Shown here: piece by piece, positions 7,739 to 52,231 of the stretch
Layout: each line of letters opens with the position of its first letter
How positions within the stretch are numbered: position 1 is the stretch's first letter
Source: Vicinamibacterales bacterium
Lineage (GTDB): Bacteria; Acidobacteriota; Vicinamibacteria; Vicinamibacterales; UBA8438
Assembly (NCBI GenBank): GCA_965207665.1
Contig: CBDBMV010000002.1
Location: 89,704-153,703, forward strand
DNA length: 64,000 bases
Reading direction: 5' to 3'
Notes under the pieces: generated by a model
The model's database searches: none
What the model was told of the DNA's origin: nothing
What the model saw: the letters and a program-made list of their open reading frames with translations, nothing else
Position numbers and translations under genes: made by a program

Positions 7739-7999
7739 ATCGTTGGAATCACATGCCTACGAACTTGTCACCATCGCATGTGGTCCCTACTATAACCGGA
7801 CCTGTCGACCCTCGTGAACCGTGCTGGGTTTCCGGGAGGCTCCGCTTCTTCGATGCATGGAGTTCGAGGAAAGACCGAGTCGGTACACGCCGATGGAACG
7901 CGACAGGGCGGCTCGAATGGTACTGGAGTTGAGACGGACCGCTATCCGGTAGTGTGCCGCACCACCCCGGAGCCCCCCTGAAATCGAAGAAAATAGCGC

Positions 8000-8575: not shown

Positions 8576-8721
8576 ACAGCATCGTTGCGCGCACATCGGC
8601 GCGTACTCCGTTGCAACGATGTTGTGGCGGCGAACGTCGGATTCGAACCCGTCGCGATGTCAACTGACGGAGACTTCGCCAGATGCGAAGCGGTCAACCA
8701 ACGACCACCGGCCTCTTGTAA

Positions 8722-9042
8722 TCGGACACCGGTGGCGACGGACCGGTAGTCGTGCTACTTCACGGCGTGCTGATGAATGGCAGCCTGTGGAACGGCATCG
8801 TGGAGGGCTTGCGCGATCGCTATCGCTGCATCGTCCCGGAGCTGCCGTTCGGCGCACACAGCACGCCGATGCCGAAGGATGCCGACCTCAGCCTCGGATC
8901 GATAACCACCATGATTGCCGAGTTCCTCGTGGAGCTCGACCTGCACGACGTCACTCTGGTCTGCAACGATTGGGGCAGCGCACAGCTCGTCGTCAGCCCC
9001 GGAGGTTCGGATCGGGTCGCGAACCTCGTGCTCGTCTCCTGC
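8722..9042 (+). pseudogene. Alpha/beta-hydrolase gene fragment, truncated at both ends
   Basis: Frame reads GGDGPVVVLLHGVLMNGSLW ... VTLVCNDWGSA (nucleophile-elbow position) ... NLVLVSC. An in-frame stop lies at 8719 just upstream. The 3' part is replaced by IS3 and IS110 sequence from about 9043. Confidence 0.6.
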
Positions 9043-9107
9043 ACCAGCCGAACCGCACGCTCCCGTACCTCCGGTGAATACCGACTCGGTCTTCCCATCG
9101 ACTCCAT
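9043..9107 (-). pseudogene. 5' fragment of an IS3-family orfA (about 22 codons)
   Basis: Minus strand reads (MES)MGRPSRYSPEVRERAVRLVQE, typical of the N-terminus of the IS3/IS911 HTH transposase orfA. Similarity is lost beyond that. Confidence 0.45.
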
Positions 9108-9111
9108 CCTC

Positions 9112-10503: not shown

Positions 10504-10766
10504 CGGATCCTCCTCCGCTCGGCGATTGGAGAGTCCGGGGGCAGGGTGCGGTTAGGAACAATCTCTTAAGCGGGATCACGCAAGCGTGTCACCAACGAGG
10601 TGGCCGCGACACATCCCTTGGACCACGCTCCCAAACGGGCTCGCCAAGCACCAGTGGAAGGGTCGGCCTCAGTCCCCGGACGCCGCCGCGACTCTACCCC
10701 AGCATGCCGCGAGAGAACCCCGGTTTCTTTGATTTCAGGTGTCGGGCGTCGCGCCCCGTACGGCGG
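10504..10766 (-). ncRNA. Candidate bridge-RNA-encoding 5' non-coding end of IS110 copy 1
   Basis: 263 nt without a credible ORF, upstream of the transposase gene. Contains 8-mers identical to the element-end/core junction (ctcttaag at 10563-10570) and to the target-flank/core junction (gctcccaa at 10627-10634). Confidence 0.35.
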
Positions 10767-10769
10767 CTC

Positions 10770-12161
10770 TTAAGAAACTCCAGGCTCCACGAGTTGGCCC
10801 GTTTCTAGATGGATCAGGCCGAGACCGAGTTGTTGGGCACGGTTACGGAGATTTCGTAGGGCGCGCGTACGGTGTTGCGCTTCGTAGGCGTCGACACCCG
10901 GATCGGCGTACTCGATGTCGCCGCGCAAAACCCGGTAGACAAGTATCGCGAGCTTACGAGCCGTCGCGGTGATGGCCTTGGCCTTCCCGACACGGTAGGC
11001 GAGACGGCGGTAGTACGCCCCGAGGGCGGTGGAGGTTCTCCCGACCGACATGGCGCACAAGCGGAGTATGGTGGCGGCACGGTTCGCAGATGGGACGGTC
11101 CGCGAGCTAATCACTCGCCCTCCGGTGATCTTGTTCTTGGGCGCGAGGGTCAGCCAGGACGTGAAGTGCTTTGCGCTGGGCCACCGCGTCATGTCGGTGC
11201 CGATCTCGGCGATGAGTCGTAGGGCCGTATACGGCCCGATGGAGTCGATCCGTGTGAGATCCGCGCCGCAGAGGCGGTGGAGGGGGCTGCGAATCTCGAA
11301 GCGCGGTTCGTTCTTGGTCCGCTGCCGCTGCCGCGCCGGAGAAAGCGCGTTCTCGGAAGACGCGTGCTCCGCGGCCAAGTCCCGCAGCAGGGATTCGATC
11401 GCCTCATCGCATCGGCCGATCTGATGCTGATAGCTCTCGTAGAGTTCGAGGTTTTGGCGCAGGGCAAAGACATGCTCTGGCCGATAGTTCCCGGTCAGTG
11501 CGGCGGCAATCTCGTCCTCAGACGCACGACAGCGGTAGTTGCGGTGAGCCGCGAGTGCGCCGGGGTCGGTCACGCCGCGGGCGATGTCGCGTACGATTCG
11601 TATCCCCGTCTCTCCGGTGATGTCGGTAATGACATGATGGAGCTGGACGTTCATCTGCACCAGGGCTTTCTGAATCCGACGGACGTGCGTGGCGGCATCC
11701 TGTATCAGCGTCTCCCGATGCCGGAGGTACGCGCGGAGTGAGACCAGATCCGCTGACGGTCGGAAACTCCCGCGCAGCAGGCCGACGCTGTGCAGTTCCT
11801 GCAGCCACTGGCAGTCGATCACATCCGTCTTCCGTCCCGGGACGTTCTTCACGTGTCGGGCGTTCACCAGCACTACCTCAAAGCCTTGTGCTTCGAGCAT
11901 GTCATACAGCGGGATCCAGAACACGCCGGTGGCCTCCATAGCCACCGTGTCGATGCGGCATGCCTGCAACCACTCGACCAGTTTAGAAAGCTGTGGCGTC
12001 AGCGTCCTGAAGCGACGGACCGGCTCTCGGTCCCGATCGGCCGGTACCGCCACGTAGTGATGCTGAGCCCCGCAGTCGATCCCGGCGGCGTTGGGCTTGA
12101 TCTCCGGTAGTGCCGCCGCCGGCTTCTTCGTCTTCTGTGCACGAACGCGCCTGTCTGCCAT
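10770..12161 (-). CDS. IS110-family transposase (identical second copy)
   Basis: 463-aa product identical to 9112..10503. Confidence 0.9.
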   Translation of the reverse strand: MADRRVRAQKTKKPAAALPEIKPNAAGIDCGAQHHYVAVPADRDREPVRRFRTLTPQLSKLVEWLQACRIDTVAMEATGVFWIPLYDMLEAQGFEVVLVNARHVKNVPGRKTDVIDCQWLQELHSVGLLRGSFRPSADLVSLRAYLRHRETLIQDAATHVRRIQKALVQMNVQLHHVITDITGETGIRIVRDIARGVTDPGALAAHRNYRCRASEDEIAAALTGNYRPEHVFALRQNLELYESYQHQIGRCDEAIESLLRDLAAEHASSENALSPARQRQRTKNEPRFEIRSPLHRLCGADLTRIDSIGPYTALRLIAEIGTDMTRWPSAKHFTSWLTLAPKNKITGGRVISSRTVPSANRAATILRLCAMSVGRTSTALGAYYRRLAYRVGKAKAITATARKLAILVYRVLRGDIEYADPGVDAYEAQHRTRALRNLRNRAQQLGLGLIHLETGQLVEPGVS

Positions 12162-12424
12162 CGGATCCTCCTCCGCTCGGCGATTGGAGAGTCCGGGGGC
12201 AGGGTGCGGTTAGGAACAATCTCTTAAGCGGGATCACGCAAGCGTGTCACCAACGAGGTGGCCGCGACACATCCCTTGGACCACGCTCCCAAACGGGCTC
12301 GCCAAGCACCAGTGGAAGGGTCGGCCTCAGTCCCCGGACGCCGCCGCGACTCTACCCCAGCATGCCGCGAGAGAACCCCGGTTTCTTTGATTTCAGGTGT
12401 CGGGCGTCGCGCCCCGTACGGCGG
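12162..12424 (-). ncRNA. Candidate bridge-RNA-encoding 5' non-coding end of IS110 copy 2
   Basis: Identical to 10504..10766. Confidence 0.35.
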
Positions 12425-12427
12425 CTC

Positions 12428-12469
12428 CCAAGAAATGGAGTCTCCAGGAAACCCGGTACGGTTCATACA
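12428..12469 (-). mobile_element. IS3-family left-end remnant (terminal repeat region), separated from its orfA start by the IS110 pair
   Basis: Minus strand reads TG(TA)TGAACCGTACCGGGTTTCCTGGAGACTCCATTTCTTGG. Joining it to 9108 and downward restores GGGAGGA-N8-ATG of the orfA fragment. Confidence 0.4.
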
Positions 12470-12609
12470 AATGGTTGACGACATCTCTGTCCTCGACAAT
12501 AGTGCTGCTCTTTGTCTGAGCGATGAGAACGAAAGTCAAATTATTCAATAGCCGTGCCTTCATCGCCATCTACAGGAGGCAGGGCGGCGCACTTAGGCCA
12601 ACAATCCTA

Positions 12610-14709
12610 TCATGGCATGAGCGCGACAAAATCTGCGTACGCTGTGCGCAACCTCGCTACGAAATGGTTTCTCTCCTGCGCCTGGACGTGTCGCGTCTGT
12701 ACTGCGGTCTTCTTCTCGTACGGGTGTGATACTGGAACGTGGTTTCGCCGAGTGTTCATGTCCCGGAAGCAGCCACCTATTCTTGGACAATTCCTTGAAA
12801 ACGGTCCGTTCGCGTCCAGCGTCACTCCGAAATCAACAAGGTTTCCATCCTTGCCCACCGTGGTACAAGCTGCGCGGTGACCCGCAGCCGCTAGGTGCCG
12901 CTGTAGCGCCAAGAACACAGTTTGATTAAACGAGTTCTGACATACCAACCAAAACGATCGCCTAGCAGCGAACGTCGCCTCCGCCAGCTTTAGCATGCCG
13001 AGTGCATGGACGTACTCAGCGCCCAACAGCGTGCGCCATGATTTACCCCGTGGCACGCTGTATCGAGCGTTGAGAATCTCCGCAACGGCATCAACTTTCG
13101 GGACCGGCGACGCGGTGACGCCCAGCTCACCTAGCGTGTTCGCTACCTGCGATGGCAGCGCCGCCGTCGTTAGGCCAAACGTCGACGGGGATAACCCTCG
13201 CTCTTGCAGTGCCGCACAAACTGAAAGGCCGGGTTCAGGACTGCTGCGCCTGAGAAATATATCTACCAGCTCGTCTTTGCGATAGCTTCCATCCGGAAGA
13301 ACGGGAGCTAACACCGATTGCAGCAGCGGCACCTGGTACTTCAGCCACCGACTGAGACGACGCGACGTCACCTCCTCAGAGACGCACAGGAAGTGACACG
13401 CCCCCCATTTCTCCACGAAGTTCTCAAAGGATTTCTTTCTTGCAATACTCACGGCACGGTCGATGAAGTTGCGGAGTTCAGCCACGGTCTTCGAGGTTGG
13501 GGTCCGTACGTACCGGGCAAGCACGTGCCACGCCTCGCCACGAATGTACGGGTAGGGACTGCTTTGAACTAGATCGTGACAGAGTCGTTCGATCGGCCTG
13601 CGAAAGCCAAATCGTCCGATATAGGCAAAGAACGCATCAGCATGCTCAGGATGTCGTGTGATCAGGCGTAGGACGAATTTGAGTAGGTCCGTATCCGGAT
13701 CTGCACGGTAGAGTACAAACCGAAGCCTTGTCTTGTCAGTAACACGGTTAGGTCTCCCTGCAATCGCAGAGCGAAAAGTGCTGCGAGCATACTGCCTGTC
13801 GAGCCTTTCGCTCCCTGAGCCTTCATGTTGCGGATCTGAAATGCTCGGCAACATCCCCATCGCGTCTTCCACGCTCTGTGCACGCTTTATGGAAAACTTT
13901 CCGGTCTGGGGAATAAGGCCTCGCTCCCTACAATGGCGCTCCAGTTCAATGAGACTTGCACGAACCTCGTCCTCAGTCGCACCGAAAAGCCTAACGTCGT
14001 CAACATATCGCGTATAGCCCCGACGCTTCTGTAGGGCGCGGTCGATGGGAAAGAGGAAGCATTCGGCAAGGAAATCAGATGCTAGCGGACCTTGCGGCAA
14101 TCCATGACCGTGTCCAGACGACGCTCGGTCGGAACTCCAGACCTTTAGGCACTCTCCGAGCCATTCCAGGTCGGCACTCGACGTTCGGGGATAAATCGTC
14201 CTCAGTAGAAGCTCGTGAGAAATTGTCTCGTAAAATGCCGCCAGGTCGAAGTCGCCAACCCACCGGATACCGTCGGCGTAGTGCCTCTTAATCTGGCGCT
14301 GGAATGCCCTGTATGTGAACTGCCATTGGCGAAAGAAAAAGATGCTCTCGGGTTTCTCGAGTATGTTGCTGAACACGACCTTGAACTGGAGCGGTCGGCG
14401 TTTCTGCTGCATTCGCTTGGCCGCGAGATTGGCGAATGCCTGAAGGACGATCTGATCTTCGACTCGAAGTAGAGCAAGCGGTCGATGGAGGCCTGAGGCC
14501 TTTGGAACGTAAATGCGTTCTGGACGTTGCGGTTCAAAGGCCCGACCGATTAGGCGTTGCCGGAGGTCTGCTAGGTTCGCACTAAGCGCGACCTCGTATG
14601 CGTAGTATATGTCTCGATAGAAGCGCTTATACTGGTAATTGCTACCCGTTGTGATTCGTCGCCAAGCCAGCTCTAAATTGTTCTTGCTTGCGAGCTGGTT
14701 TATCCTCAT
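12610..14709 (-). CDS. Stand-alone reverse transcriptase with ~370-aa helical C-terminal extension (Abi/UG defence-associated RT-like)
   Basis: 699 aa with RT motifs YVPKASGLHRPLALLRVEDQIVLQA, DFDLAAFYETISH, GLPQGPLASDFLAECF and YTRYVDDVRLFG. No endonuclease or maturase motifs seen. Low-G+C context. Confidence 0.85.
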   Translation of the reverse strand: MRINQLASKNNLELAWRRITTGSNYQYKRFYRDIYYAYEVALSANLADLRQRLIGRAFEPQRPERIYVPKASGLHRPLALLRVEDQIVLQAFANLAAKRMQQKRRPLQFKVVFSNILEKPESIFFFRQWQFTYRAFQRQIKRHYADGIRWVGDFDLAAFYETISHELLLRTIYPRTSSADLEWLGECLKVWSSDRASSGHGHGLPQGPLASDFLAECFLFPIDRALQKRRGYTRYVDDVRLFGATEDEVRASLIELERHCRERGLIPQTGKFSIKRAQSVEDAMGMLPSISDPQHEGSGSERLDRQYARSTFRSAIAGRPNRVTDKTRLRFVLYRADPDTDLLKFVLRLITRHPEHADAFFAYIGRFGFRRPIERLCHDLVQSSPYPYIRGEAWHVLARYVRTPTSKTVAELRNFIDRAVSIARKKSFENFVEKWGACHFLCVSEEVTSRRLSRWLKYQVPLLQSVLAPVLPDGSYRKDELVDIFLRRSSPEPGLSVCAALQERGLSPSTFGLTTAALPSQVANTLGELGVTASPVPKVDAVAEILNARYSVPRGKSWRTLLGAEYVHALGMLKLAEATFAARRSFWLVCQNSFNQTVFLALQRHLAAAGHRAACTTVGKDGNLVDFGVTLDANGPFSRNCPRIGGCFRDMNTRRNHVPVSHPYEKKTAVQTRHVQAQERNHFVARLRTAYADFVALMP

Positions 14710-15143
14710 CGAATTTGCCGATTAACGTCCGTTGCGCAGAGCGTCGTCACACAAGGTGGTCCGGGTGCGGTTGAGGAACTCGCGTATGCCTACGCCGGCT
14801 TAGTTCATCGGGTGCAAGAGAAAGACTACATCACGGCACCACTACTGCAGCTCAGATATTCGCTACGAATACCCCGACTACCGTCACCTCCCCGACAGTC
14901 ATGTTCTCAACCTCGCCACCAACCTATTGCAGGCACCGAAACATCAACGGCCAACTGCGTAGGAACTCAAACCGAGGCTACACTGATCCGAAAAGTGCGG
15001 GATGTTCTGGATACAACCGGTGTCTAGCTATGTATATAAGCTCTCGAAAGAATATCACCGGCCAGATTCTTGCGACCGCCTCATGACCCCGTGCGATCGC
15101 GGTAGTGTTCCGACGACTCCTCGGGTCGAGATTATCTGCGCGG

Positions 15144-15575
15144 TCAACTCCTAGATGCAGCACTCGCTACGAGGAGAACCGAACCAGTGACTAGTAACGG
15201 AAGCCCCCACGAAAGCTGTACAGACTGCATCGCTATTTCGCCCAACGCTGCGAACGGATTGCCAGCGAGCTCGACTTCCATCTCAGTCCGAACGCTACTC
15301 AGCATCATCTGGAACTGAATAAACGTAAATCCAATAACAGCCAAGGAACCGAACCCGGCAATCCAGTTCCACGCATACCGTCCCATTAGCGTCGCGACAA
15401 TTGCGGACACGCCGAGGATCAAGACGATTGTGCCATCACCTTGGCCGTTTTGGAAGTACGACTGACTACCCACGAACGGCAACGTCACGATGGGTGCGAA
15501 CACGCCAACGGCACAAACGATTCCTCCCACTAGCCCCAACCAGTAACGTCTTGGCACGCCCATCGCCTCTGCCAT
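15144..15575 (-). CDS. Small integral membrane protein (about 4 TM helices)
   Basis: 143-aa ORF with four hydrophobic stretches. Same strand as the RT, upstream of it. Confidence 0.55.
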   Translation of the reverse strand: MAEAMGVPRRYWLGLVGGIVCAVGVFAPIVTLPFVGSQSYFQNGQGDGTIVLILGVSAIVATLMGRYAWNWIAGFGSLAVIGFTFIQFQMMLSSVRTEMEVELAGNPFAALGEIAMQSVQLSWGLPLLVTGSVLLVASAASRS

Positions 15576-15834
15576 ACCATTTGCCTTTCGCTCTACGCCC
15601 GATACGCCATCAACATGCTATGTACGCCTGTCGGCACGTGCCTCACTAGGACCACTATCGACGGAATGCATGCCCCTCTTCGCGAGCGGCCTCCAGTATC
15701 GAACCATTTTTTATGTCACGATCCAATGAAGGAAAACCTCACTATCCATTGACTGCCCGCACCGAGGAATCGATCCGCAGGACGCGTGCGAAGTGGCCTT
15801 CGTTCTCCCGACCAACACACGACCTAAGTTGAGT

Positions 15835-15925
15835 GGCGGAGAGGGTGGGATTCGAACCCACGTGCCGGTTTCCCGACAAGACGCTTTCGAGGCGCCCCCG
15901 TTACGACCACTTCGGTACCTCTCCG
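15835..15925 (-). tRNA. tRNA-Ser (anticodon CGA)
   Basis: Reverse complement folds as a type II tRNA. Acceptor stem GGAGAGG/CCTCTCC, anticodon loop CTCGAAA, long variable arm, T-arm GTGGGTTCGAATCCCAC, encoded CCA. Confidence 0.9.
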
Positions 15926-17094: not shown

Positions 17095-18729
17095 TCAGTC
17101 GCCGAGCGCGAAGGTGAAGATGGCCTGGCCGGCGGCGATGGTCACCTGCTGGCGGCCGTTCACCTGGTAGGTGATGGGCGCTGCAATCACGTTGCCGCCC
17201 AGGCGCCTGTGCCACAGGTCGTCGCCGGTCTCGGCGTCCAGCGCGATGAAGTTGCCGGTGACGGTCCCCGCAAAAGCCAGGCCTCCGGCGGTGGTCATCA
17301 CGCCCGACATCGACTTGGGCTGCACGCGGTGCTCCCAGACCACGCGGGCGGTCTGCGGGTCGATCGCGCGCACGGCGCTGACCCGGTCGTTGCGCGACGT
17401 CTGCGGCGTGTGGCTGCCGCCAATGAACAGTTGGCCCGGCACGTACTCGGATTCCGCCTGGTAGTACATCGCGCTGCCGTCGTACGCCATCGTGTAGAAC
17501 AGCCCGGTGTCGGGGCTGTAGGAGGGCGACCACCAGTTGGAGGCGCCGTTCACGTCGGGATACACCAGCCGGCCCTCGGGCGTCGGCTCCATGTTCGGCA
17601 CGCGGATGGGCCGCCCGCTGTCGTCGAGGCCCTGCGCCCAGGTCTGCACGGCAAATTCCCGCCCCTGCACGAAGCGGCCGGTCTCGCGGTCGAGCACGTA
17701 GAAGAAGCCGTTGCGGTTGGCAAACAGCATCAGCTTCTGCGTGCGCCCGCCGACCTCCATGTCGACGAGCACCGGCACCTGGCAGGCGTCCCAGTCGTGG
17801 ACGTCGTGCGGCGTGAACTGAAAGTGCCACTGGATCTCGCCGGTGTCAGCGTCGATGGCGATGACGCTGTCGGAGTAGAGATTGTCGCCCTCGCGCGCCT
17901 CGCCGTTCCAGTCGGGGCCGGGGTTGCCGACGCCCCAGTAGATGAGGTTGAGGTCCGGGTCGTACGAGCCGGTCATCCAGGTCGACGCGCCGCCGGTCTT
18001 CCAGGAATCGCCTTCCCACGTCTCGTTGCCGGGCTCGCCCGGACCGGGAATGGTGTAGGCCCGCCAGCGGCGCTCGCCCGTATCGGCGTCGTAGGCGTCC
18101 ACCCAGCCGCGAATGCCGTACTCTCCTCCGCCGGTGCCGGTGACGATCATGTCCTTCACCACCAGCGGCGCGGCCGTCATGCTGTAGCCGGCGAGGTGGT
18201 CGGCAATCTTGCGGTCCCACAGCTCGGTGCCGGTGGCGGCGTCGAGCGCGATCAGGTGCGCGTCCATGGTGGTCAGGTAGAGCCGCTCGCCGAGCATGCC
18301 GACGCCGCGGCTCTGCTTGCTGCAGCAGAGCGCCAGCGTGTCGGACAGGTCGTGCTGGTAGGTCCAGAACACGTTGCCGGTGGCCGCGTCGAGGGCGTAC
18401 ACCTCGTTCTCCGGCGTGGTGAGGTACATGATGCCGTCCTTCACCAGCGGCGTGGTCTGCACCTGGCCGAGGACGGGCAGTTGCCGCACCCAGGCGAGCT
18501 CCAGCCGGTCGACGTTGGAGCGGTCGATCTGCGCCAAGCGGCTGTGGCGTTGTGCGTGGTACTGGCCGTGATAGGTGATCCAGTTCGCGGGATCGTCGCC
18601 GGCGCGCACGATCTGCTCGTACGTCACCCCGCCGCCCTGGGCGCCGAGCGCGGCGACTGCGCAGAGCGCGGCCAGGAGTCCGAGGCAGAGCGTTCGCCGG
18701 AAGGTCTGAGTTCGCATCGAATTGGTCAT
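17095..18729 (-). CDS. PQQ-dependent alcohol dehydrogenase-like quinoprotein
   Basis: Start trimmed to the ATG at 18729 (MTNSMRTQTF, signal peptide). WITYHGQYHAQRHSRLAQI, vicinal CC (LALCCSKQSRGV) and repeated beta-propeller W motifs. ATGA overlap with the upstream cytochrome c gene. Confidence 0.8.
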   Translation of the reverse strand: MTNSMRTQTFRRTLCLGLLAALCAVAALGAQGGGVTYEQIVRAGDDPANWITYHGQYHAQRHSRLAQIDRSNVDRLELAWVRQLPVLGQVQTTPLVKDGIMYLTTPENEVYALDAATGNVFWTYQHDLSDTLALCCSKQSRGVGMLGERLYLTTMDAHLIALDAATGTELWDRKIADHLAGYSMTAAPLVVKDMIVTGTGGGEYGIRGWVDAYDADTGERRWRAYTIPGPGEPGNETWEGDSWKTGGASTWMTGSYDPDLNLIYWGVGNPGPDWNGEAREGDNLYSDSVIAIDADTGEIQWHFQFTPHDVHDWDACQVPVLVDMEVGGRTQKLMLFANRNGFFYVLDRETGRFVQGREFAVQTWAQGLDDSGRPIRVPNMEPTPEGRLVYPDVNGASNWWSPSYSPDTGLFYTMAYDGSAMYYQAESEYVPGQLFIGGSHTPQTSRNDRVSAVRAIDPQTARVVWEHRVQPKSMSGVMTTAGGLAFAGTVTGNFIALDAETGDDLWHRRLGGNVIAAPITYQVNGRQQVTIAAGQAIFTFALGD

Positions 18730-19547
18730 CTCTGTCGCAGGGAAGAGAGGTACGCCACGAGGTCGTCCAGCTCGGTGTCGTCGAGGCGCCCGGCGAAGCT
18801 GGGCATCAGCGAGACTTCCGGGCTCTCGATCTCCTCGAGGTCCGACTTCATGAACGAACGCAGGCGGCCGGCCATGTCGAGGAGCTGGACCGAATAGGAA
18901 TCCTCGTTGAGCAGCACGCCCACCGTCGGCGCGCCGTCGGCGCCGACCACGCGCACCTGGCGGAATTCCTCCTCGATGTCGCCGCCCGGATCGACGATGG
19001 ACGCCCGCAGGTGCACCGGCGAGCGGCTCCAGCCGATGGTGCTCAGCTCCGGCCCCAGCCGCCCGCCCTCGCCGCCGACGAAGTGGCAGCGCCCGCAGTC
19101 GTGGCGGACGTACAACTCCCGGCCGGCGTCGGGGTCGCCGGTCTCGGCCATCTCCGCCGGGGCGCGCAGCGAGCGGACGAAGGCGACGATCTGCCACATC
19201 TCCTGGTCCGACAGTCGGACCGACGGCATGCCGGTGTTCGGGATACCGCTCAGGATGTTCATGAAGATGGCGCGGTCGCTGTTGCCGTGGCGGTACACCT
19301 CGCGCGTCAGGTCCGGCCCGCGGTCGCCCTGGCCGTCGGCGCCGTGGCACACGGAGCAGCGCGACGCGAACAGCTCCCCGCCCACCCTGACATCCTCATC
19401 CGAGGTGTACGGATTCGCGTCGACCCCGCGCTGGGCGTCGATGGACGCCAGCGGGCGCTGCGCGGTGGCCGGCGGGGCCAGGACCAGCAGCGCCGCAACC
19501 AGCAACGCGAACACGGCGGCGGGACGCGTGAACATGCGCATCGGCAC
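18726..19547 (-). CDS. Dihaem c-type cytochrome
   Basis: Two CxxCH motifs (CSVCH, CGRCH) and a signal peptide. Confidence 0.85.
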   Translation of the reverse strand: MPMRMFTRPAAVFALLVAALLVLAPPATAQRPLASIDAQRGVDANPYTSDEDVRVGGELFASRCSVCHGADGQGDRGPDLTREVYRHGNSDRAIFMNILSGIPNTGMPSVRLSDQEMWQIVAFVRSLRAPAEMAETGDPDAGRELYVRHDCGRCHFVGGEGGRLGPELSTIGWSRSPVHLRASIVDPGGDIEEEFRQVRVVGADGAPTVGVLLNEDSYSVQLLDMAGRLRSFMKSDLEEIESPEVSLMPSFAGRLDDTELDDLVAYLSSLRQR

Positions 19548-19579: not shown

Positions 19580-21565
19580 ATGCTCAGACCGGGTTCCCAA
19601 CTAAGCCGTCTTCCAGGCGCGCCAGTCACCATGATCGCCGTCCCGCTCTTGACCGTCTTCCTCAGCTTCAGCGGCACCGCGCCCGCCGCTGCGCAGCCGT
19701 CAGGCCACGACGGCGAATGGCGCAGCTACGGCGGCGGGACCGGCGGGGCGAAGTACTCCCCGCTCGACCAGATCGACGCGGACAACGTGGACGACCTGCG
19801 CATCGCCTGGCGCTGGCGCTCGGTCGACTACGACCTGGTCGACGAGAACCCGGACCTGCGTTTCAACCACACCCTGCTCGGCACGCCGCTGTTGGTCGGC
19901 GACCGGTTGTACATGAGCACCAACCTGGGCCAGTCGGCGGCCATCGATCCGGCCACCGGCGAGACGCTCTGGGTGTACCGCGCGCTGGACGACGGCGCCG
20001 GCCGGCCGCGCGGCGGCTCCACCCGCGGCGTCGCGTATTGGCACGACCCGGGCCTGGACGACGAGCGGATCTTCGTCGTCAGCGGCGAGCACCTCGTGGC
20101 GCTCGACGCGAAGACCGGCAACCCGATCGGCGAGTTCGGCGAAGGCGGCAAGGCCGACCTGCGGGCGGGCATCCCGCGGCTGGAGGAGTACCAGTGGAAC
20201 GCCCCGCCGCTGGTCTGCCGCGACACCGTCATCGTCGGCATCTACGTCAACGACGTGCCGATGAACAAGGAGCAGGCGCCCGGCTACATCCAGGGCTTCG
20301 ATGCGGTGACCGGCCGGCTGAAGTGGCAGTTCAACCCGGTGCCGCAGCCGGGCGAGCCGGGCAACGAGACGTGGGAGGACGGCTCTTGGGAGTACACCGG
20401 ATCGGCGACGGTCTGGTCGGTGATGACCGCCGACGAGGAGCTGGGCTACGCCTATCTCCCCACCGGCACGCCGACCCACAACTGGTACGGCGGCCACCGG
20501 CCCGGCGACAACCTGTTCGCCGAGAGCCTGCTCTGCCTCGACTGCGACACGGGGCGGCTGGTCTGGTACTTCCAGATGATCCACCACGGCGTGTGGGACT
20601 ACGACATCGCCTCGCCGCCGATCCTGGCCGACATCACCGTCGACGGCCGGCCGATCAAGGCAGTGGCGCAGGTGAGCAAGCAGGCGTTCACCTACGTCTT
20701 CGACCGCGTCACCGGCGAGCCGGTCTGGCCGATCGAGGAGCGCCCCGTGCCGCCGTCGGACGTGCCGGGCGAGCAGCTCTCGCCGACGCAGCCCTTCCCG
20801 ACGAAGCCCGCGCCGTTCGACCGGCAGGGCATCACCGAGGACGACCTGATCGACTTCACCCCGGAGCTGCGCGCCGAGGCGCTGGAGATCTTCAGGCAGT
20901 ACCGCTCCGGGCCGATGTTCACGCCCCCGTCCGTGCGCGACGAGTCGCCGGGCGGCACGCTGGGCACGCTGCAGCTTCCGAGCTACGTGGGTGGCTCGAA
21001 TTGGAACGGCGCGGCGTACGACCCCGACACGCAGATGCTCTACGTGCCGTCCATCACCGCTCCAATCCTGGTGTGGCTGCGGCAGCCCGACCCCACGGTG
21101 TCGAACTTCCGCTACATCCGCGGCAACCGCAACGTGTACATCGACGGCCCGCGCGGCCTGCCGCTGGTCAAGCCGCCGTGGGGCCGCATCACCGCCATCG
21201 ACCTCAACACCGGCGAGCACGTCTGGATGACGCCGAACGGCCCCGGACCGCGGGACCACATCGCGCTGCAGGACCTGGCGCTGCCGTGGCTGGGGGCGCC
21301 CGGTCGCGCGGCGCCGCTGCTGACGAAGACGCTGCTGTTCCTGGGAGACGGATCGCCGTCGCTGGTAGTCATTCCGCCGCACGGCGGGGGCAAGATGTTC
21401 CGCGCCTACGACAAGGCGACCGGCGACGTGCTGTGGCAGACCGAGCTGCCGGCCGGCACGTCAGGCGCACCCATGACGTACCTGCACGAGGGGAAGCAGT
21501 ACATCGCGGTGGCCATCAGCGACAACGAGCACGAGGGCGAGGTGATCACCCTCGCGCTGCCTTGA
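19580..21565 (+). CDS. PQQ-dependent dehydrogenase (beta-propeller quinoprotein)
   Basis: WRSYGGGTGGAKYSPLDQIDADNVDDLRIAWRW and propeller repeats. The true start may be the ATG at 19631 (MIAVPLL), which would leave a more plausible divergent intergenic region. Confidence 0.8.
   Translation: MLRPGSQLSRLPGAPVTMIAVPLLTVFLSFSGTAPAAAQPSGHDGEWRSYGGGTGGAKYSPLDQIDADNVDDLRIAWRWRSVDYDLVDENPDLRFNHTLLGTPLLVGDRLYMSTNLGQSAAIDPATGETLWVYRALDDGAGRPRGGSTRGVAYWHDPGLDDERIFVVSGEHLVALDAKTGNPIGEFGEGGKADLRAGIPRLEEYQWNAPPLVCRDTVIVGIYVNDVPMNKEQAPGYIQGFDAVTGRLKWQFNPVPQPGEPGNETWEDGSWEYTGSATVWSVMTADEELGYAYLPTGTPTHNWYGGHRPGDNLFAESLLCLDCDTGRLVWYFQMIHHGVWDYDIASPPILADITVDGRPIKAVAQVSKQAFTYVFDRVTGEPVWPIEERPVPPSDVPGEQLSPTQPFPTKPAPFDRQGITEDDLIDFTPELRAEALEIFRQYRSGPMFTPPSVRDESPGGTLGTLQLPSYVGGSNWNGAAYDPDTQMLYVPSITAPILVWLRQPDPTVSNFRYIRGNRNVYIDGPRGLPLVKPPWGRITAIDLNTGEHVWMTPNGPGPRDHIALQDLALPWLGAPGRAAPLLTKTLLFLGDGSPSLVVIPPHGGGKMFRAYDKATGDVLWQTELPAGTSGAPMTYLHEGKQYIAVAISDNEHEGEVITLALP
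21504..21561 (+). repeat. 58-bp direct repeat, copy A (3' end of the PQQ dehydrogenase CDS)
   Basis: Matches 23168..23225 with 2 mismatches, counted by eye. Confidence 0.8.
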
Positions 21566-21693
21566 CCCTGGTCCGCACCGCGCGCGCTTCCGACCCGCCG
21601 ATGCCCCGCGGCGGCGAGACGTTTGTGATGAACCCGCAGAAGGTAGAGTGCCGTGTGAGACACGTGGTGCGGGAACCTTGCTGTTGATACACG

Positions 21694-23115
21694 ATGGGAA
21701 TCGATACAAAGCGGATCCGGGTCAACAAGGAGCGCGTGCTGAAGTCTGCTGCCGATATCGGCCGCGGGGTGGCGGAGTCCGTCTCAAGCGGGTCGAAGAA
21801 GGCGCTGGACGCTACGGCAAGCGGATCGAAACGGGCGATGGCATCGGCGGCTAGCGGATCCCGCAAGGCTCTGGATTCCACGACAGCCACATCGCGGAAG
21901 GCGCTGAAGTCTGCTGCCGATATCAGCCGTGAGGTGGCGGAGTCCGTCTCAAGCGGGTCGAAGAAGGCGCTGGATGCTGCGGCGGGCAGCTCGAAACGGG
22001 CGGTGGCATCGGCGGCTAGCGGATCCCGCAAGGCTCTGGATTCCACGACAGCCACATCGCGAAAGGCGATGAAGTCTGCTGCCGATTCCGGCCGCAAGGT
22101 CGCGGGGTCGGTCTCAAGCGGGTCCAAGAAGGCACTGGACGCTACGGCAAGCGGTTCAAAACGAGCGATCGCATCGGCGGCTAGCGGGTCCCGAAAGGCT
22201 CTGGAATCAACGACGGCCGTATCGCGAGAGGCATGGAATTCGGCGTCGGTGTCGGCGGCTCGCCTGATTGGTGTGACCCAGGCCGCCTTAGCGAGCAGGT
22301 TGTCAGTCGACCTAAATTCCATGCTCGCCGGCATCGCTGAAGGTCCGGCGACAATCTACGACAAGGCCATGGACGCGGGGTATCTTGAAACCAGCATCGG
22401 TGGCGCGTATCACCGTCTGTTCGACGGGGGGCACACGATCGCGGGAGCGGCGAAGGCGGTCCAGGGTGCCTCAACCCAGGACAGCCTCATCCATGAGGGC
22501 CTCGGCTTTGTCCAGGGGATGTTCCGGGACATGACGACGGCCAAAGGTCTGCCATTGGCGAATTGGGACAAGGCGACGTATGAACACGCCGCGAGCTTCC
22601 TGGAATCGCAGTTTCAAATCAGTCGCGAGTGGTTCTACAACCTGAACACCTACAACGCAGCTGATTTGGTGGGCGGTACGATCGGCATACTCGCGGTGGT
22701 GTTCTTGTGGAATCGGGCCGACACGGAGAGCTTCAGCAGGATGGTGGGCAGCATGGGCGTGGCGGCCGGTCTCAGCGCGAATCCGCTGCTACTGGTCATC
22801 ACGGTAGTCGCCTTGGCGAGAGCCTTTCAGAGGGCCAGAACGGAGGGCAAATGGGGCGACTTCGTCGATGGATCGATACGCGGATCTGTGGTCGCAGCGC
22901 TCACGATCTTCGCAGTCGCACAGGTCACGACGCTTGGCGGCCCCGTGGGTCTGTCCTTCTTGGTAGGCCTCGTGGTCGGCATCCTCGCCAGCAAGGCCGT
23001 GTCTCACGTCAGCGTTGCCGAGATCAGCCGAGTCCTGGCTGAACGGGCCAAGGCAGCCGCAGTTGAGTTCAGGAGCCTCCGGGGCCTGACAATTCCAGCG
23101 CTACCAGCGCGATAG
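21694..23115 (+). CDS. Hypothetical protein: N-terminal 11-residue repeats plus C-terminal multi-TM region
   Basis: 473-aa ORF. Three 55-aa (165-bp) tandem repeats, each made of five 11-mers (SGSKKALDATA type). The C-terminal third has hydrophobic helices. Confidence 0.7.
   Translation: MGIDTKRIRVNKERVLKSAADIGRGVAESVSSGSKKALDATASGSKRAMASAASGSRKALDSTTATSRKALKSAADISREVAESVSSGSKKALDAAAGSSKRAVASAASGSRKALDSTTATSRKAMKSAADSGRKVAGSVSSGSKKALDATASGSKRAIASAASGSRKALESTTAVSREAWNSASVSAARLIGVTQAALASRLSVDLNSMLAGIAEGPATIYDKAMDAGYLETSIGGAYHRLFDGGHTIAGAAKAVQGASTQDSLIHEGLGFVQGMFRDMTTAKGLPLANWDKATYEHAASFLESQFQISREWFYNLNTYNAADLVGGTIGILAVVFLWNRADTESFSRMVGSMGVAAGLSANPLLLVITVVALARAFQRARTEGKWGDFVDGSIRGSVVAALTIFAVAQVTTLGGPVGLSFLVGLVVGILASKAVSHVSVAEISRVLAERAKAAAVEFRSLRGLTIPALPAR
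21739..22233 (+). repeat. 3 x 165-bp in-frame tandem repeat within the CDS
   Basis: Near-identical nucleotide units starting gaagtctgctgccgat... Confidence 0.85.
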
Positions 23116-23286: not shown

Positions 23287-23541
23287 TCAGCGGTAGGCGT
23301 CACGGCGGCGAACGACGCGAGCGATTTCAACAACCCTGTCGTCGAAATGGTAGGAGTAGAGAACGCGCCAAGCACCTACGCGGAGGCGCCATCCCTTGCC
23401 AGGGCCCCGCAGGCGCTTGACGTCTCCAGCGCCAGTCTCTGCGTGTCGTTCGATTGCGTCAACGATGCGGGTGCGTGCCTGTCGATCCAGTTGCTTCAGG
23501 TCTTGAAGCGCTCGGGTCGATAGCGAAACCGTCCAACTCAA
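23287..23541 (-). CDS. RelE/ParE-family type II toxin
   Basis: 84 aa: DLKQLDRQARTRIVDAI ... VKRLRG ... WRLRVGAWRVLY ... VVRRRDAY. Confidence 0.8.
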   Translation of the reverse strand: MSWTVSLSTRALQDLKQLDRQARTRIVDAIERHAETGAGDVKRLRGPGKGWRLRVGAWRVLYSYHFDDRVVEIARVVRRRDAYR

Positions 23542-23801
23542 AGGTCAAGTTCCCGCTTGACCTCGTCAAGAGTGTGGGTTCGGCCGGCCGCGAAATCCTC
23601 GCGTCCCTCGTCCAGAAGACGGCGGCCTCGCTCGCTCAGTTCCTCGTCCTCTTCCTGCGCGGCTATCGCAACTCTCACCAGAGGGTCGCCATGCGCGGCC
23701 AGGTATTCAAGAAAACGCTCCGCAGCGTGGATCTCGGCTTCCGGCAGGCGATCCACGAGACGATACAGACGAGTTCTCAAATCAGCTTCCATGACTGCCA
23801 T
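23538..23801 (-). CDS. Putative cognate antitoxin
   Basis: 87-aa acidic protein directly upstream of the toxin, with a 4-nt overlap. Confidence 0.6.
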   Translation of the reverse strand: MAVMEADLRTRLYRLVDRLPEAEIHAAERFLEYLAAHGDPLVRVAIAAQEEDEELSERGRRLLDEGREDFAAGRTHTLDEVKRELDL

Positions 23802-23825: not shown

Positions 23826-24257
23826 TTACGGCTCGGGACTGATCGGGCCTTCCGCCGGGCGCTCGGTCGTGCCCAGCTCGTAGCCCCTGTCCTTCCAGTC
23901 GTTCAGTGCGCAGAATTCGCCGGCGTTGTAACCGTTCGATCTGAAGAGCTCCGCAGCACGGGAGCCCCGGCCTCCGCCGTTTCAAAAGAAGACGAGGCGG
24001 ACGTCCTTGGGAATGTCGGACATCCGGTCCTCGAGCTCCCCTACCGGGATGTGGATGGCGCCGGGAATCGAGCCGCTGGCCACCTCGTGGTCCTCGCGCA
24101 CGTCGATCATCAGCACCTCGGCGCCGGCGTCAAGCTGCTGCTTCAGCTCGTCGATTTCCATGCGCTCGGTCTGCGCCGCCGCGGGCAGCGCCACGGCCAG
24201 CAGGCCTGCCGCGCCCAGCAACGCGAACAGCCGGAATCGTAATGGATGAAGCATCAT
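23826..24257 (-). CDS. Periplasmic single-domain rhodanese with in-frame TGA (codon 92) at the catalytic Cys position; candidate selenoprotein
   Basis: AGGAGG 7 nt upstream of ATGATG, then a signal peptide. IDVREDHEVASGSIPGAIHIP ... KDVRLVFF-TGA-NGGGRGSRAAELFRSNGY ... LNDWKDRGYEL. The same frame continues 51 more codons to the TAA at 23826. Confidence 0.6.
23946..23967 (-). promoter_or_regulatory. Candidate bacterial SECIS hairpin
   Basis: Begins 15 nt after the UGA. Stem GGGCUCC/GGAGCUC (7 bp including one G-U), 8-nt loop CGUGCUGC containing GU. Confidence 0.4.
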
Positions 24258-24267
24258 CGCGGGCCTC

Positions 24268-25227
24268 CTAGCGACTGCCGGTTTCCGCCGCCTCCAGCGC
24301 ACGCGCGCCGAGCAGGATGTTCTCCAATCCGTAGTTGCCCTCGTGGCAGGCATACTCGTATATCCCGCCTTCGAGGGTTGTCATCGGGATCGACGCCGTC
24401 CACGGCCGCGTGTATTCCTTGGGATCGGTCAGCGTGTACTGGTAGTCGATCGAGTTCTCGCCGGTCCGCGTGAAGCGCTCCACCAGACTCGTGGTCTCGG
24501 TGCCGCCGAAGACCGTACGGGCGCGTCCGTTCACGGGGCTGAAGTTGGTGGTCTCGACCACCAGCGTATCCCCCTCCCAGCGGCCGCGCGAGTCGCCCAT
24601 CCACTGCCCGATGCGGGGGTCGGGGTGCGGGCGCCCGTCCAGGGGAATGATGCGCGAGTCGTGGATCATCTCCACGTAGATCACCACGTATCCCGGCGTC
24701 TGGAAGATCTGGTAGTTGTGGTTGTAGAAGCCGGGCATCATGGCGCCGGGCATCCCGCGGGAGATGCAGCGCTCGTACTCGTTGCGGTCTTCCGGGCCGG
24801 CCGCTTCCCGGTCGCGGTACGACTCGCGGGTGGGCCGGTAGGCCGCCTCCGCGGCCGTCAGCGGCAGCTTGCCGTCCGGCGGGTCGACGATGAGCGACGT
24901 GCGCGCCATGTTCACGCCGCGCTCGACCCAGAAGTTGTTGTAGGAGCCGGTCTCGCCCGTGCCCGCCTCGATGCCACGCGCCTCGCGGGCGACGTCGGCC
25001 GCCGCGTCCCGGGATGCGCGCTCCTCGTCGGTAAGCAGCTCCCCGGCCTCCACGCTGTCCGGACGCTCCAGCGGGGTCTGCGTGGTGTTCGTCCAGAATC
25101 CCTGCAGGTCGGGGTCGCCCCACGGGGTGCGGGGCGCCGACCAGCTACCCGCCTGAGCGGCTGCAGCAACCGGCGCGAGCGCCACGACCGTCGCCGCGCA
25201 CAACGCTACGAGAATTCGGCAGGTCAT
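24268..25227 (-). CDS. Secreted protein, uncharacterised paralog family (copy P3)
   Basis: Start trimmed to MTCRILVALCAATVVALAPVAAAAQA. All family blocks present. Its stop codon overlaps the SD of the rhodanese gene. Confidence 0.85.
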   Translation of the reverse strand: MTCRILVALCAATVVALAPVAAAAQAGSWSAPRTPWGDPDLQGFWTNTTQTPLERPDSVEAGELLTDEERASRDAAADVAREARGIEAGTGETGSYNNFWVERGVNMARTSLIVDPPDGKLPLTAAEAAYRPTRESYRDREAAGPEDRNEYERCISRGMPGAMMPGFYNHNYQIFQTPGYVVIYVEMIHDSRIIPLDGRPHPDPRIGQWMGDSRGRWEGDTLVVETTNFSPVNGRARTVFGGTETTSLVERFTRTGENSIDYQYTLTDPKEYTRPWTASIPMTTLEGGIYEYACHEGNYGLENILLGARALEAAETGSR

Positions 25228-25250
25228 CTTTCCCTCCTCAACAGCCGGTA

Positions 25251-26219
25251 TCACCGGGACTGGCTGGCCGCCTGGGCCTGCTCGATGGCGCGCGCGCCCA
25301 GCAGGATGTTTTCCAGCCCGTAGTTGCCCTCGTGACAGGCGTACTCGTATATCCCGCCTTCGAGGGTGATCATCGGGATCGACGCGGTCCACGGCCGCGA
25401 GTACTCCGTGGGGTCGGTCACCGTGAACTCGTAGTCGATCGAGTTCTCGCCGGTCCGCGTGAATCGCTCCACCAGGCGCGTGGTCGGGTTGCCGCCGAAG
25501 ACGGTCAGGCCGCGCCCGGTTATCGGGGCGAAGTTGGTGGTCTCGACGACCAGCGTATCGCCCTCCCAGTGGCCGCGCGAGTCGCCCATCCACTGGCCGA
25601 TGCTGGCGTCGGGATGCGGGCGGCCGTCCAGGGGAATGATGCGGGAATCGTGGACCATCTCGACGTAGATGACGACGTATCCCGGTATCTGGAGGATCTG
25701 GTAGTTGTGGTTGTAGAAGCCGGGCATCATGGAGCCCGGCATGCCGCGGCTGATGCAGCGCTCGTACAGGTTGCGGTCCTCCGGGCCGGCCGGCTCCCGG
25801 CTGCGGTACGAATTGCGGTCCGCGCGGCGGGCGATCTCCGCGGCCGTCAACGGGAGCTTGCCGTCAGGCGGGTCGATGATGAGCGACGTGCGCGCCATGC
25901 GCACCCCGCGCTCGACCCAGAAGTTGTTATAGGAACCCGTCTCGCCCGTGCCGGGCTCGATGCCGCGGGCCTCCCGGGCGACGTCCCCGGCCGCGTCGCG
26001 CGACGCGCGTTCCTCGTCGGACAGCACGTCGCCCGCCGCCATGTCGTCCGGACGTTCCAGCGGGGTCGTCGTGGTGTTCGTCCAGAATCCCTGCAGGTCC
26101 GGGTCGCCCCACGGCGTGCGGGGCGCCGACCAGTTGTCCGCCTGGGCGGCTGCAGCGGCCGGCGCGAGCGCCACGACCGCCGCCACCGCGAATAACGCTA
26201 CGAGAATCCGGCAGGTCAT
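25251..26219 (-). CDS. Secreted protein, uncharacterised paralog family (copy P4)
   Basis: 322 aa, very similar to P3 and P5, with GAGGAGGGAAAG upstream. Confidence 0.85.
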   Translation of the reverse strand: MTCRILVALFAVAAVVALAPAAAAAQADNWSAPRTPWGDPDLQGFWTNTTTTPLERPDDMAAGDVLSDEERASRDAAGDVAREARGIEPGTGETGSYNNFWVERGVRMARTSLIIDPPDGKLPLTAAEIARRADRNSYRSREPAGPEDRNLYERCISRGMPGSMMPGFYNHNYQILQIPGYVVIYVEMVHDSRIIPLDGRPHPDASIGQWMGDSRGHWEGDTLVVETTNFAPITGRGLTVFGGNPTTRLVERFTRTGENSIDYEFTVTDPTEYSRPWTASIPMITLEGGIYEYACHEGNYGLENILLGARAIEQAQAASQSR

Positions 26220-26262
26220 CTTTCCCTCCTCCTCGCACGCGCGGATTGCCGCCCGGCCCGGG

Positions 26263-27228
26263 TCACCGGGACTGGTTGGCGGCCGCCTCCAGGGCGCGCG
26301 CGCCCAGCAGGATGTTCTCCAGCCCGTAGTTGCCCTCGTGGCAGGCGTACTCGTATATCCCGCCTTCGAGGGTGGTCATCGGGATCGACGCCGTCCACGG
26401 TCTCGTGTACTCCGCGGGGTCGGTCACCGTGAACTCGTAGTCGATCGAGTGCTCGCCGGTCCGCGTGAAGCGTTCCACCAGTCGCGCGCTCTCGTTGGCG
26501 CCGAAGATGCCAAGCGCCCGCTGGTTTACCTGAGTGACGTTGACGGTCTCGACCACCAGCGTGTCGCCCTCCCAGCGGCCGCGGGAATCCCCGAGCCACT
26601 GCCGAATCTGCGGGTCGACGTGCGGACGTCCGTCCAGGGGGATGATGCGGGCATCGTGGACCATCTCGACATAGATGGCGACGTACCCCGGCGCCTGGAG
26701 GATCTGATAGTTGTGGTTGTAGAAGCCGGGCATCATGGCGCCCGGCATGCCGCGCGAGATGCACCGCTCGAACGCGCTGCGGTCCTCGGGACCGGCCGGC
26801 AACTGGTTCCGATACGCTTCGCGGCCCGCACGGCGCGTGGCCTCCGCCGGCGTCAGCGGCAGCTTCCCGTCCGGCGGGTCGACGATGAGCGACGCGCGTG
26901 CCATGCGCACCCCGCGCTCGACCCAGAAGTTGTTGTAGGAGCCGGTTTCGCCGGTACCCGGCTCGATGCCCCGCGCCTCGCGGGCGACGTCACCGGCGGT
27001 GTCCCGGGACGCGCGTTCCTCGTCGGAAAGCACATCTCCCGCCGCCACGTCGTCCGGCCGTTCCAGCGGCGTTGTGGTGGTGTTGGTCCAGAAACCCTGC
27101 AGGTCGGGGTCGCCCCACGGCGTGCGCGGCGCCGACCAGTTGCCCGCCTGACCCGCGACGCTCACCGGCGCCAGCAACGCGACCGCCGCCGCCGCGCAGA
27201 TCGCTACGAGAATCCGGCAGGTCATCAT
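26263..27228 (-). CDS. Secreted protein, uncharacterised paralog family (copy P5)
   Basis: Start trimmed to MMTCRILVAICAAAAV. All family blocks present. Confidence 0.85.
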   Translation of the reverse strand: MMTCRILVAICAAAAVALLAPVSVAGQAGNWSAPRTPWGDPDLQGFWTNTTTTPLERPDDVAAGDVLSDEERASRDTAGDVAREARGIEPGTGETGSYNNFWVERGVRMARASLIVDPPDGKLPLTPAEATRRAGREAYRNQLPAGPEDRSAFERCISRGMPGAMMPGFYNHNYQILQAPGYVAIYVEMVHDARIIPLDGRPHVDPQIRQWLGDSRGRWEGDTLVVETVNVTQVNQRALGIFGANESARLVERFTRTGEHSIDYEFTVTDPAEYTRPWTASIPMTTLEGGIYEYACHEGNYGLENILLGARALEAAANQSR

Positions 27229-27342
27229 CCCCTCCTCACGCTTCCCGTACGCGGTTACTGGGCATGATGGATCAGGACCCAATCGCAAGCAAGGATTAGC
27301 GGCCGGTCGCCGGCAGAAATCCGGCGCTGGTCCGACGGGAAC

Positions 27343-49670: not shown

Positions 49671-49741
49671 CCGCGCCAGGAGCAGGGCAGGCGCGAGAGG
49701 TATGCCGCCTATATGCTTATTGCGTCATCAAGGAGGAGCAC

Positions 49742-52140: not shown

Positions 52141-52231
52141 ATCCGGGGGCGGGCGAACGCCGCTTGACGGGTACGCCATCAGGTCCGAAATCGGCCAACG
52201 CGGCATCTGCTGCAACGCTATAGTGTCGGTG

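Follow-up and report, generated by a model that had tools for sequence, protein, structure and literature searches.

A predicted signal-peptide-bearing selenocysteine rhodanese of Vicinamibacterales with a conserved hairpin downstream of its in-frame UGA

A 64,000-nucleotide (nt) stretch of DNA from a Vicinamibacterales bacterium (assembly GCA_965207665.1, contig CBDBMV010000002.1, positions 89,704 to 153,703; hereafter the window) carries on its minus strand a gene for a rhodanese-like protein whose reading frame is interrupted by a TGA at the position of the catalytic cysteine. Our analysis indicates that this is very probably a genuine selenoprotein gene and, with only slightly less confidence, we propose that it encodes a 143-residue single-domain rhodanese, bearing a signal peptide, in which selenocysteine (Sec) serves as the catalytic nucleophile and which is made and acts by the mechanism set out below. 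The case is carried by a recoding signature in the compared sequences, consisting of a conserved UGA, a conserved downstream frame, alternation with Cys and a hairpin constrained at the RNA level, and by the rhodanese fold of the predicted product.

Results

A rhodanese reading frame continues beyond an in-frame TGA

Read from the ATG at 24257, the frame runs for 91 codons (MMLHPLRF...DIPKDVRLVFF) to the TGA at 23984–23982 and then for another 51 codons, NGGGRGSRAAELFRSNGYNAGEFCALNDWKDRGYELGTTERPAEGPISPEP, to the TAA at 23828–23826 (Table 1). A mechanical list of open reading frames (ORFs) terminated the gene at the TGA. A preliminary description of this DNA had pointed out that the frame stays open for 51 more codons and that a strong AGGAGG precedes the gene, and both statements agree with the translation and the sequence. 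The AGGAGG overlaps the TAG stop (24270–24268) of an upstream paralog gene, and the two genes are therefore probably co-transcribed. The N-terminus reads as a signal peptide, with a basic n-region, a hydrophobic core and A-A-A before Q29, and the N-termini of the homologs are equivalent.

TGA is also the commonest ordinary stop in the window, where it ends 20 of 36 likely genes, and it is the terminal stop of the rhodanese gene itself in 8 of the 15 Vicinamibacteria-type genes described below; a global reassignment of UGA is thus ruled out. When the window was scanned for in-frame TGA codons with coding-like flanks on both sides, this gene came up and, besides it, just one ordinary gene junction, and no further selenoprotein gene was found in the scan of the window and the Vicinamibacteria loci.

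The TGA occupies the catalytic column of the rhodanese fold

With U written as C, the translated frame matches PF00581 across the TGA at 53.9 bits (gathering cut-off 22.2, E = 2.6e-14). Sequence alignment places the TGA column on the catalytic Cys of solved rhodaneses, which lies in the contexts f-y-C-g-G-G-f-R-s in 6mxv and i-i-F-C-q-v-G-l-R-g in 4ocg. The nucleophile heads a six-residue active-site loop that follows the central β-strand and reads LVFF-U-NGGGR-(G)S. Rhodanese loops of six residues are of the sulfurtransferase type, and those of seven residues are of the phosphatase or arsenate-reductase type.

An AlphaFold2 model was made for the Cys homolog P0018, which is 54% identical to the window protein. 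The predicted local distance difference test score (pLDDT) of the model is ~90 through the domain, and the model superposes on the single-domain rhodanese 3gk5 with a template modelling (TM) score of 0.85 and a root mean square deviation of 1.7 Å over 99 columns. It consists, around the active site and beyond it, of a strand (residues 88–92), Cys93, the loop, a helix (98–108), a second strand (112–116), Cys117 and a further helix (119–124). As judged by this model, the α/β rhodanese fold is completed by the part of the protein that follows the nucleophile, and the alignments and the model agree that a TGA-terminated product would be without the nucleophile, the active-site loop, two helices and one strand. 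The PDB alignments, the PF00581 match and the homolog model therefore all bear out the preliminary description in its claim that the stop sits exactly at the catalytic Cys and that the remainder completes the fold.

Two other elements of the downstream part are conserved. A second Cys, Cys116, is invariant in Sec and Cys forms alike; its equivalent in the homolog model follows the strand that is next to the catalytic one in sequence order, and it is a candidate resolving or partner thiol. Outside the rhodanese domain, the C-terminal tail R-P-x-x-G-P-I-x-P is modelled in the homolog with a pLDDT of ~83–90.

The TGA is conserved and alternates with Cys

We obtained 716 relatives from a large protein collection. 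Of the 120 best matches, 106 are short (82–95 residues) and all end in ...LVFF, while the other 14 are full-length (137–149 residues) and all have Cys at the TGA column. A scan of one genome per species yielded 13 loci in Vicinamibacteria or unclassified Acidobacteria metagenome-assembled genomes (MAGs), several of them closed chromosomes of 4.5–5.9 Mb, and one additional locus lies on the 8.5-Mb contig ERZ26694896:ctg118120; complete Vicinamibacterales chromosomes with the gene include OZ253664.1, OY760136.1, OY762226.1 and OZ244656.1. Together with the window these loci make up 15 Vicinamibacteria-type genes. Each has as its first in-frame stop a TGA at the same column, followed by 50–52 conserved in-frame codons and then by a true stop (TAA, TAG or TGA), and similarity among the orthologs collapses 3' of that true stop.

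Another 80 loci came from a metagenome scan. When all fetched loci are counted, 76 have TGA at the catalytic column and 6 have TGC, a Sec majority that is skewed by the Sec-rich query alignment. With the 14 full-length Cys homologs, these counts establish an alternation of TGA and Cys codons at this column. The TGA-bearing loci come from independent assemblies, including long-read MAG chromosomes, and their proteins share 45–96% identity. Because the same TGA recurs in 76 independently assembled loci, it can be put down neither to faulty sequencing nor to a recent nonsense mutation. Many of the loci are soil or sediment contigs, and within the family TGA outnumbers TGC; the picture of Sec-rhodaneses as rare proteins of marine metagenomes, given in the preliminary description, does not fit this family.

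The downstream segment is under protein-level selection

For 34 Sec-form genes, 46 codons after the TGA were analysed. They align without a gap, and they match the C-terminal part of the Cys forms residue for residue, including Cys116 and the RPxxGPIxP tail. In the Vicinamibacteria-like group the Nei-Gojobori proportions of synonymous (pS) and nonsynonymous (pN) differences are 0.53 and 0.115 upstream of the TGA (pN/pS 0.22) and 0.49 and 0.173 downstream of it (pN/pS 0.35). Purifying selection acts on both sides of the TGA. The downstream codons have thus been kept in frame, and the TGA itself is retained in all 14 orthologs of the window gene.

The hairpin after the UGA is constrained at the RNA level

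A hairpin resembling a selenocysteine insertion sequence (SECIS) follows the UGA after a 14-nt spacer, so that its stem starts at the 15th nucleotide, and it is included in the minimum-free-energy fold. We compared 34 distinct sequences of the window's type (F/T-U-N-G-G-x-R-x-S-R-A-A-E-L-F), in which 93.8% of the cells of the 8-bp stem are paired. The four codons that form the stem are nearly frozen: Ser is TCC in 34/34 sequences, Ala GCG in 31/31, Glu GAG in 34/34 and Leu CTC in 32/33, which corresponds to synonymous heterozygosities of 0, 0, 0 and 0.06. For the Arg and Ala codons of the loop the values are 0.49 and 0.58; elsewhere in the gene, 53 conserved codons have a median of 0.40 and a minimum of 0.06. 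This synonymous freeze of the stem codons is significant by permutation (p = 1.5e-5) and by a Mann-Whitney test (p = 5e-4). The RSSRAAEL peptide also occurs in Cys-form orthologs, where different codons encode it (for example AGC TCA AGG GCC GCC GAA CTT) and no hairpin forms; the peptide therefore does not force the hairpin. We conclude from these codon comparisons that the hairpin is under RNA-level selection.

The loop consensus is C-G-K-G-C-N-G-C, with CGU or CGG across the sequences and only the G residues conserved. The preliminary description had taken the hairpin for a bacterial SECIS because of its position, its shape and a GU in its loop. The hairpin, its position and an RNA-level constraint on it were recovered, but the GU is not a conserved feature of the loop. 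A second small hairpin directly after the UGA (CGGC-GGAG-GCCG), also in the minimum-free-energy fold, was considered as well; it is 82% paired, which is indistinguishable from shuffles, and it was discarded.

An unrelated hairpin occupies the same site in a sister subfamily

A sister Sec-rhodanese subfamily with the motif Y-U-x-x-G-G-R-A-x-R-A-A (VFY-U-xxGGRAxRAA) was found in the metagenome loci L031–L083 (alignment A3), and some of its members are without a signal peptide. Its hairpin, GG(G/A)CGCGC-GNN-GCGCG(C/U)Y, is G+C-rich, has 7 bp and a 3-nt loop and begins 10 nt downstream of the UGA. Pairing over 35 sequences is 99.6%, a value that none of 500 shuffles reaches. One pair shows a compensatory change, being G-C in 27 sequences and A-U in 8, at the cost of an Ala-to-Val substitution. 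The nearest Cys forms of the sister type (VFYCGGGGRASRAAQ) are likewise without the hairpin.

Both hairpin types have a G in the apical loop and a stem that begins 10–14 nt after the UGA. This agrees with published accounts of bacterial SECIS elements, in which a stem-loop follows directly on the UGA and its small apical loop contains G (PMC9312934, PMC1088965). Since the sister hairpin is completely different from that of the window's type, the putative SECIS at this site appears to have been replaced or reinvented within one protein family.

Weighing the selenocysteine reading

Several observations weigh against reading the gene as a selenoprotein gene. The fold energy of the single window sequence does not surpass that of shuffles (z = -0.62; 52 of 200 shuffles equal or better it), and because this one G+C-rich sequence does not stand out, the hairpin exceeds chance on comparative evidence only. 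Scans with the Rfam SECIS families, at the gathering threshold and permissively, gave no match at the locus, so that the covariance-model check on the hairpin region came out negative. Covariation in the window's type is weak and amounts to one G-C to A-U double change and some G·U/A-U alternation, since the stem is almost invariant; in the sister type the eight A-U sequences may stem from a single evolutionary event. The Sec machinery was not met with either: ARAGORN found no tRNA-Sec in the window or in 51 loci, the tRNAs of the window being tRNA-Ser(cga) and a tRNA-Arg; tblastn with E. coli SelA, SelB and SelD gave no match in the 64-kb window or in any of ~100 fetched loci; and Pfam searches identified no sel genes among ~56 window ORFs. 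Because these searches covered the window and the fetched loci and the genomes measure 4–8 Mb, the absence of sel genes is uninformative. Finally, selenium incorporation, export and activity are computational predictions. Some Acidobacteriota are known to decode Sec (PMC12013277, PMC1794560), and a literature search on Vicinamibacteria together with selenocysteine returned nothing relevant.

The strongest rival is that the UGA is read through but another residue is inserted, either Cys by way of a SelB-delivered tRNA(Cys)-UCA (selC*) or a residue carried by a suppressor allo-tRNA, which would make the product an ordinary Cys-rhodanese. The comparative data show recoding and fit any inserted residue alike; moreover, selC* tRNA(Cys) mimics tRNA-Sec and may be an opal suppressor, and allo-tRNAs of Acidobacteria may be nonsense suppressors (PMC5389517). 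The same source reports selC* from anaerobic Firmicutes, Thermodesulfobacteria, Nitrospirae and Proteobacteria and not from Acidobacteria, and neither the window nor the fetched loci contain a selC*-like tRNA or an allo-tRNA. A Cys product could also be attained without any special machinery by a single base change from TGA to TGC or TGT, yet the TGA has been kept at a pS of ~0.5, which makes Cys insertion unlikely. We consider this rival quite improbable and infer that the inserted residue is Sec.

Still less probable is that the TGA is a true stop and the 91-residue product is real but non-catalytic, with the following 51 codons kept as a separate small ORF or as an RNA element. Public gene callers do predict a product of 85–95 residues in more than 100 clusters, and no other stop is as frequent in the window as TGA. 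Against this, the 91-residue fragment would stop short of the nucleophile and its loop and would be missing one helix, one strand and the final helix of the fold. Neither a start codon nor a ribosome-binding site serves the downstream segment separately; the segment stays in frame throughout the orthologs, shares residue-for-residue homology with the C-terminal part of the Cys forms and accumulates substitutions of the protein type (pN/pS 0.35). The weakest alternative, a TGC or TGT codon turned into TGA either by a recent nonsense mutation, leaving a pseudogene, or by a mistake in sequencing or assembly, would be the default reading of an isolated interrupted ORF and needs one base only, but with the identical TGA in 76 independent assemblies and purifying selection on both sides of it we regard it as practically dismissed.

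Table 1 Coordinates of the predicted selenoprotein gene and its elements in the window
Feature	Position	Strand	Details and basis
Complete predicted selenoprotein coding sequence	23826..24257	minus	143 codons including Sec-92, plus TAA stop; translation, Pfam match across the TGA, same architecture in orthologs
Ribosome-binding site AGGAGG	24264..24269	minus	6 nt 5' of the ATG; direct sequence reading
Predicted Sec-type (secretory) signal peptide, residues 1–28, MMLHPLRFRLFALLGAAGLLAVALPAAA	24174..24257	minus	Cleavage before Q29; read from sequence
Rhodanese homology domain, residues 36–111, broken by the TGA	23925..24152	minus	PF00581, PDB sequence matches, homolog model
UGA codon 92, predicted to be read as selenocysteine	23982..23984	minus	Catalytic-Cys column; active-site loop U-N-G-G-G-R-(G)-S
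SECIS-like hairpin GGGCUCC-CGUGCUGC-GGAGCUC	23946..23967	minus	7-bp stem (8 bp with G23968·U23945), 8-nt loop
Second invariant Cys, Cys116, in F-C-x-L-x-D-W-K	23910..23912	minus	Invariant in alignments A1 and A4, Sec and Cys forms alike
Conserved C-terminal tail R-P-x-x-G-P-I-x-P, outside the rhodanese domain	23835..23861	minus	P134, G137 and P141 invariant in alignments A1 and A4

Genomic context and other features of the window

In Vicinamibacterales MAGs the gene has a conserved syntenic position. It is preceded by genes for a DUF2911 protein, an NHL-repeat protein, a protein of no assigned family and one to three secreted paralogs, and it is followed by genes for two pyrroloquinoline quinone (PQQ)-dependent dehydrogenases, another such unassigned protein, a tRNA deaminase and tRNA-Ser(cga). 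These neighbours point to no specific function beyond a periplasmic setting.

In the window, the upstream paralogs are three tandem proteins of ~320 residues (24268–27288, minus strand) with signal peptides, no Pfam match and a conserved C-terminal YEYACHEGNYGLENILLGARA motif. The last of them ends 10 nt before the start of the Sec-rhodanese gene, and other copies (40–88% identity) are scattered in related MAG loci. Between the Sec-rhodanese gene and a PQQ dehydrogenase gene a pair is inserted at 23287–23801 (minus), made up of a ParE-family toxin (23287–23541) and an overlapping 87-residue antitoxin-like ORF (23538–23801). The latter also follows the gene in locus L019 (99% identity) and persists as a 52-residue remnant in L004; it had no match in the other syntenic MAG loci. 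The two PQQ-dependent dehydrogenase genes are divergent (17095–19350, minus; 19580–21565, plus), and the first of them is conserved beside the rhodanese locus in the nine syntenic loci L004–L012; a third PQQ-repeat protein is encoded at 49667–51088. An ORF of 473 residues at 21694–23115 (plus) contains about six repeats of ~30 residues in its N-terminal half (SGSKKALDA..GSKRA.ASAASGSRKAL.STTA.SRKA.KSAAD) and is hydrophobic in its C-terminal half; it has no Pfam match and no homolog in the syntenic loci, and a 262-residue ORF lies antisense at 21546–22334.

Farther away, a low-G+C island (6827–15924; 0.555–0.578 at 12–16 kb, ~0.69 elsewhere) adjoins the tRNA-Ser(cga) gene (15834–15924, minus). 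It contains an Mrr restriction endonuclease gene (6827–7738), two IS110 copies and a 699-residue reverse-transcriptase ORF (12610–14709), and it resembles a mobile or defence island that has integrated at the tRNA. The two IS110-family copies are identical and in tandem (9109–12161), with transposase ORFs at 9112–10503 and 10770–12161 (minus) and a direct-repeat spacing of 1658 nt. At 52223–54242 (plus), a gene for an Ada/AraC/AlkA fusion (52223–53743) overlaps an O6-methylguanine methyltransferase gene (53724–54242), an ordinary adaptive-response pair.

Discussion

Proposed mechanism

We propose that the UGA at codon 92 would be recoded as the putative SECIS hairpin 14 nt downstream recruits SelB·GTP·Sec-tRNA(Sec) to the ribosome. 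Sec would be inserted and the 51 further codons translated, so that the active-site loop, helix, strand and tail complete the fold, and the full-length protein would be exported by the Sec (secretory) pathway. In the periplasm, the selenolate in the six-residue U-x4-R loop would take sulfane sulfur from thiosulfate, a persulfide or a polysulfide, form a Se-S intermediate and pass the sulfur on. Cys116 may resolve, relay or partner with the selenolate.

A more far-reaching version of this proposal seems doubtful to us at present. It would see in these genes a large unannotated clade of exported selenoproteins in Vicinamibacteria and related Acidobacteria that abound in soil, in which Sec92 and Cys116 form a periplasmic selenenyl-sulfide redox pair or a sulfane-sulfur (or selenium) relay and do not act as a classical thiosulfate:cyanide sulfurtransferase, in which Sec is the dominant state, and in which the SECIS was reinvented at least twice at the same position.

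Relation to known systems

Sec-containing rhodaneses have been predicted since 2005, and the published catalogues list five forms, two of which are PF00581 proteins with a UxxG motif (PMC13188914, PMC9312934, PMC1088965, PMC1976440). They appear there under the names 'rhodanese-related sulfurtransferase' and 'rhodanese-like domain-containing protein forms 2 and 4', with MBM9537886.1 and MCY3690685.1 as examples. Likened by motif and description, the window protein resembles these UxxG forms in having a single PF00581 domain with Sec at the catalytic Cys, here in U-N-G-G. It also shares with the catalogued proteins, as they are described, the existence of Cys homologs, a stem-loop that follows the UGA directly and has G in its apical loop, and a status as proteins known from computation. 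The Sargasso Sea family was placed under COG2897, whereas the members found here belong to Vicinamibacteria, a group of soil Acidobacteriota. They further bear a signal peptide, the RPxxGPIxP tail and, 24 residues beyond Sec, a second invariant Cys, features that the catalogue descriptions consulted do not mention.

The best selenoprotein-specific match is NF041203 (rhodanese_LYCAU '(seleno)protein', form 3, CxU; E = 2.7e-10), a curated rhodanese-domain family. The window protein is not a member of it, since it scores 40 bits against a cut-off of 115 and has the motif F-F-U-N-G-G and no C-x-U. More generally, no NCBIfam model scores the family above its cut-off, which is probably why public annotations are truncated, as for the GenBank MAG homolog P0086, an 86-residue 'rhodanese-like domain-containing protein'.

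E. coli PspE and GlpE are comparable in that they are small single rhodanese domains with a six-residue loop of the C-x4-(R/S/T) type, and PspE, too, is made with a signal peptide and acts in the periplasm. They have Cys in place of Sec and are without the second conserved Cys and the C-terminal tail. Against the PspE/GlpE equivalog models the window protein scores 22.9 and 22 bits, far from the cut-offs of 102, and it matches PDB entry 2jtq at E = 1e-4.

The window hairpin is also comparable with the SECIS of E. coli fdhF, which likewise lies within the coding region right after the UGA and has a G in the apical loop. The spacer between UGA and stem is 11 nt in fdhF, 14 nt in the window's type and 10 nt in the sister type. 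Compared with the fdhF element, the window hairpin has no sequence similarity, no Rfam match, an 8-nt loop and no bulged U.

Significance

The class of Sec-rhodaneses is thus already known, and the established picture of bacterial Sec decoding is unchanged by our findings. Mildly new are the lineage, the signal peptide, the invariant second Cys, the two SECIS designs and the majority of Sec forms among the fetched loci. The closely related Sec and Cys orthologs, in which one peptide is encoded with the hairpin in the former and without it in the latter, provide a clean natural example of how a SECIS constrains a coding sequence. Close homologs at present appear in the protein collection as catalytically dead fragments of 85–95 residues, and a dedicated family model would correct how they are annotated, both in the common soil lineage Vicinamibacteria and in related contigs from metagenomes. 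The predicted protein would add an apparently exported selenoenzyme to the selenoproteome of the Acidobacteriota.

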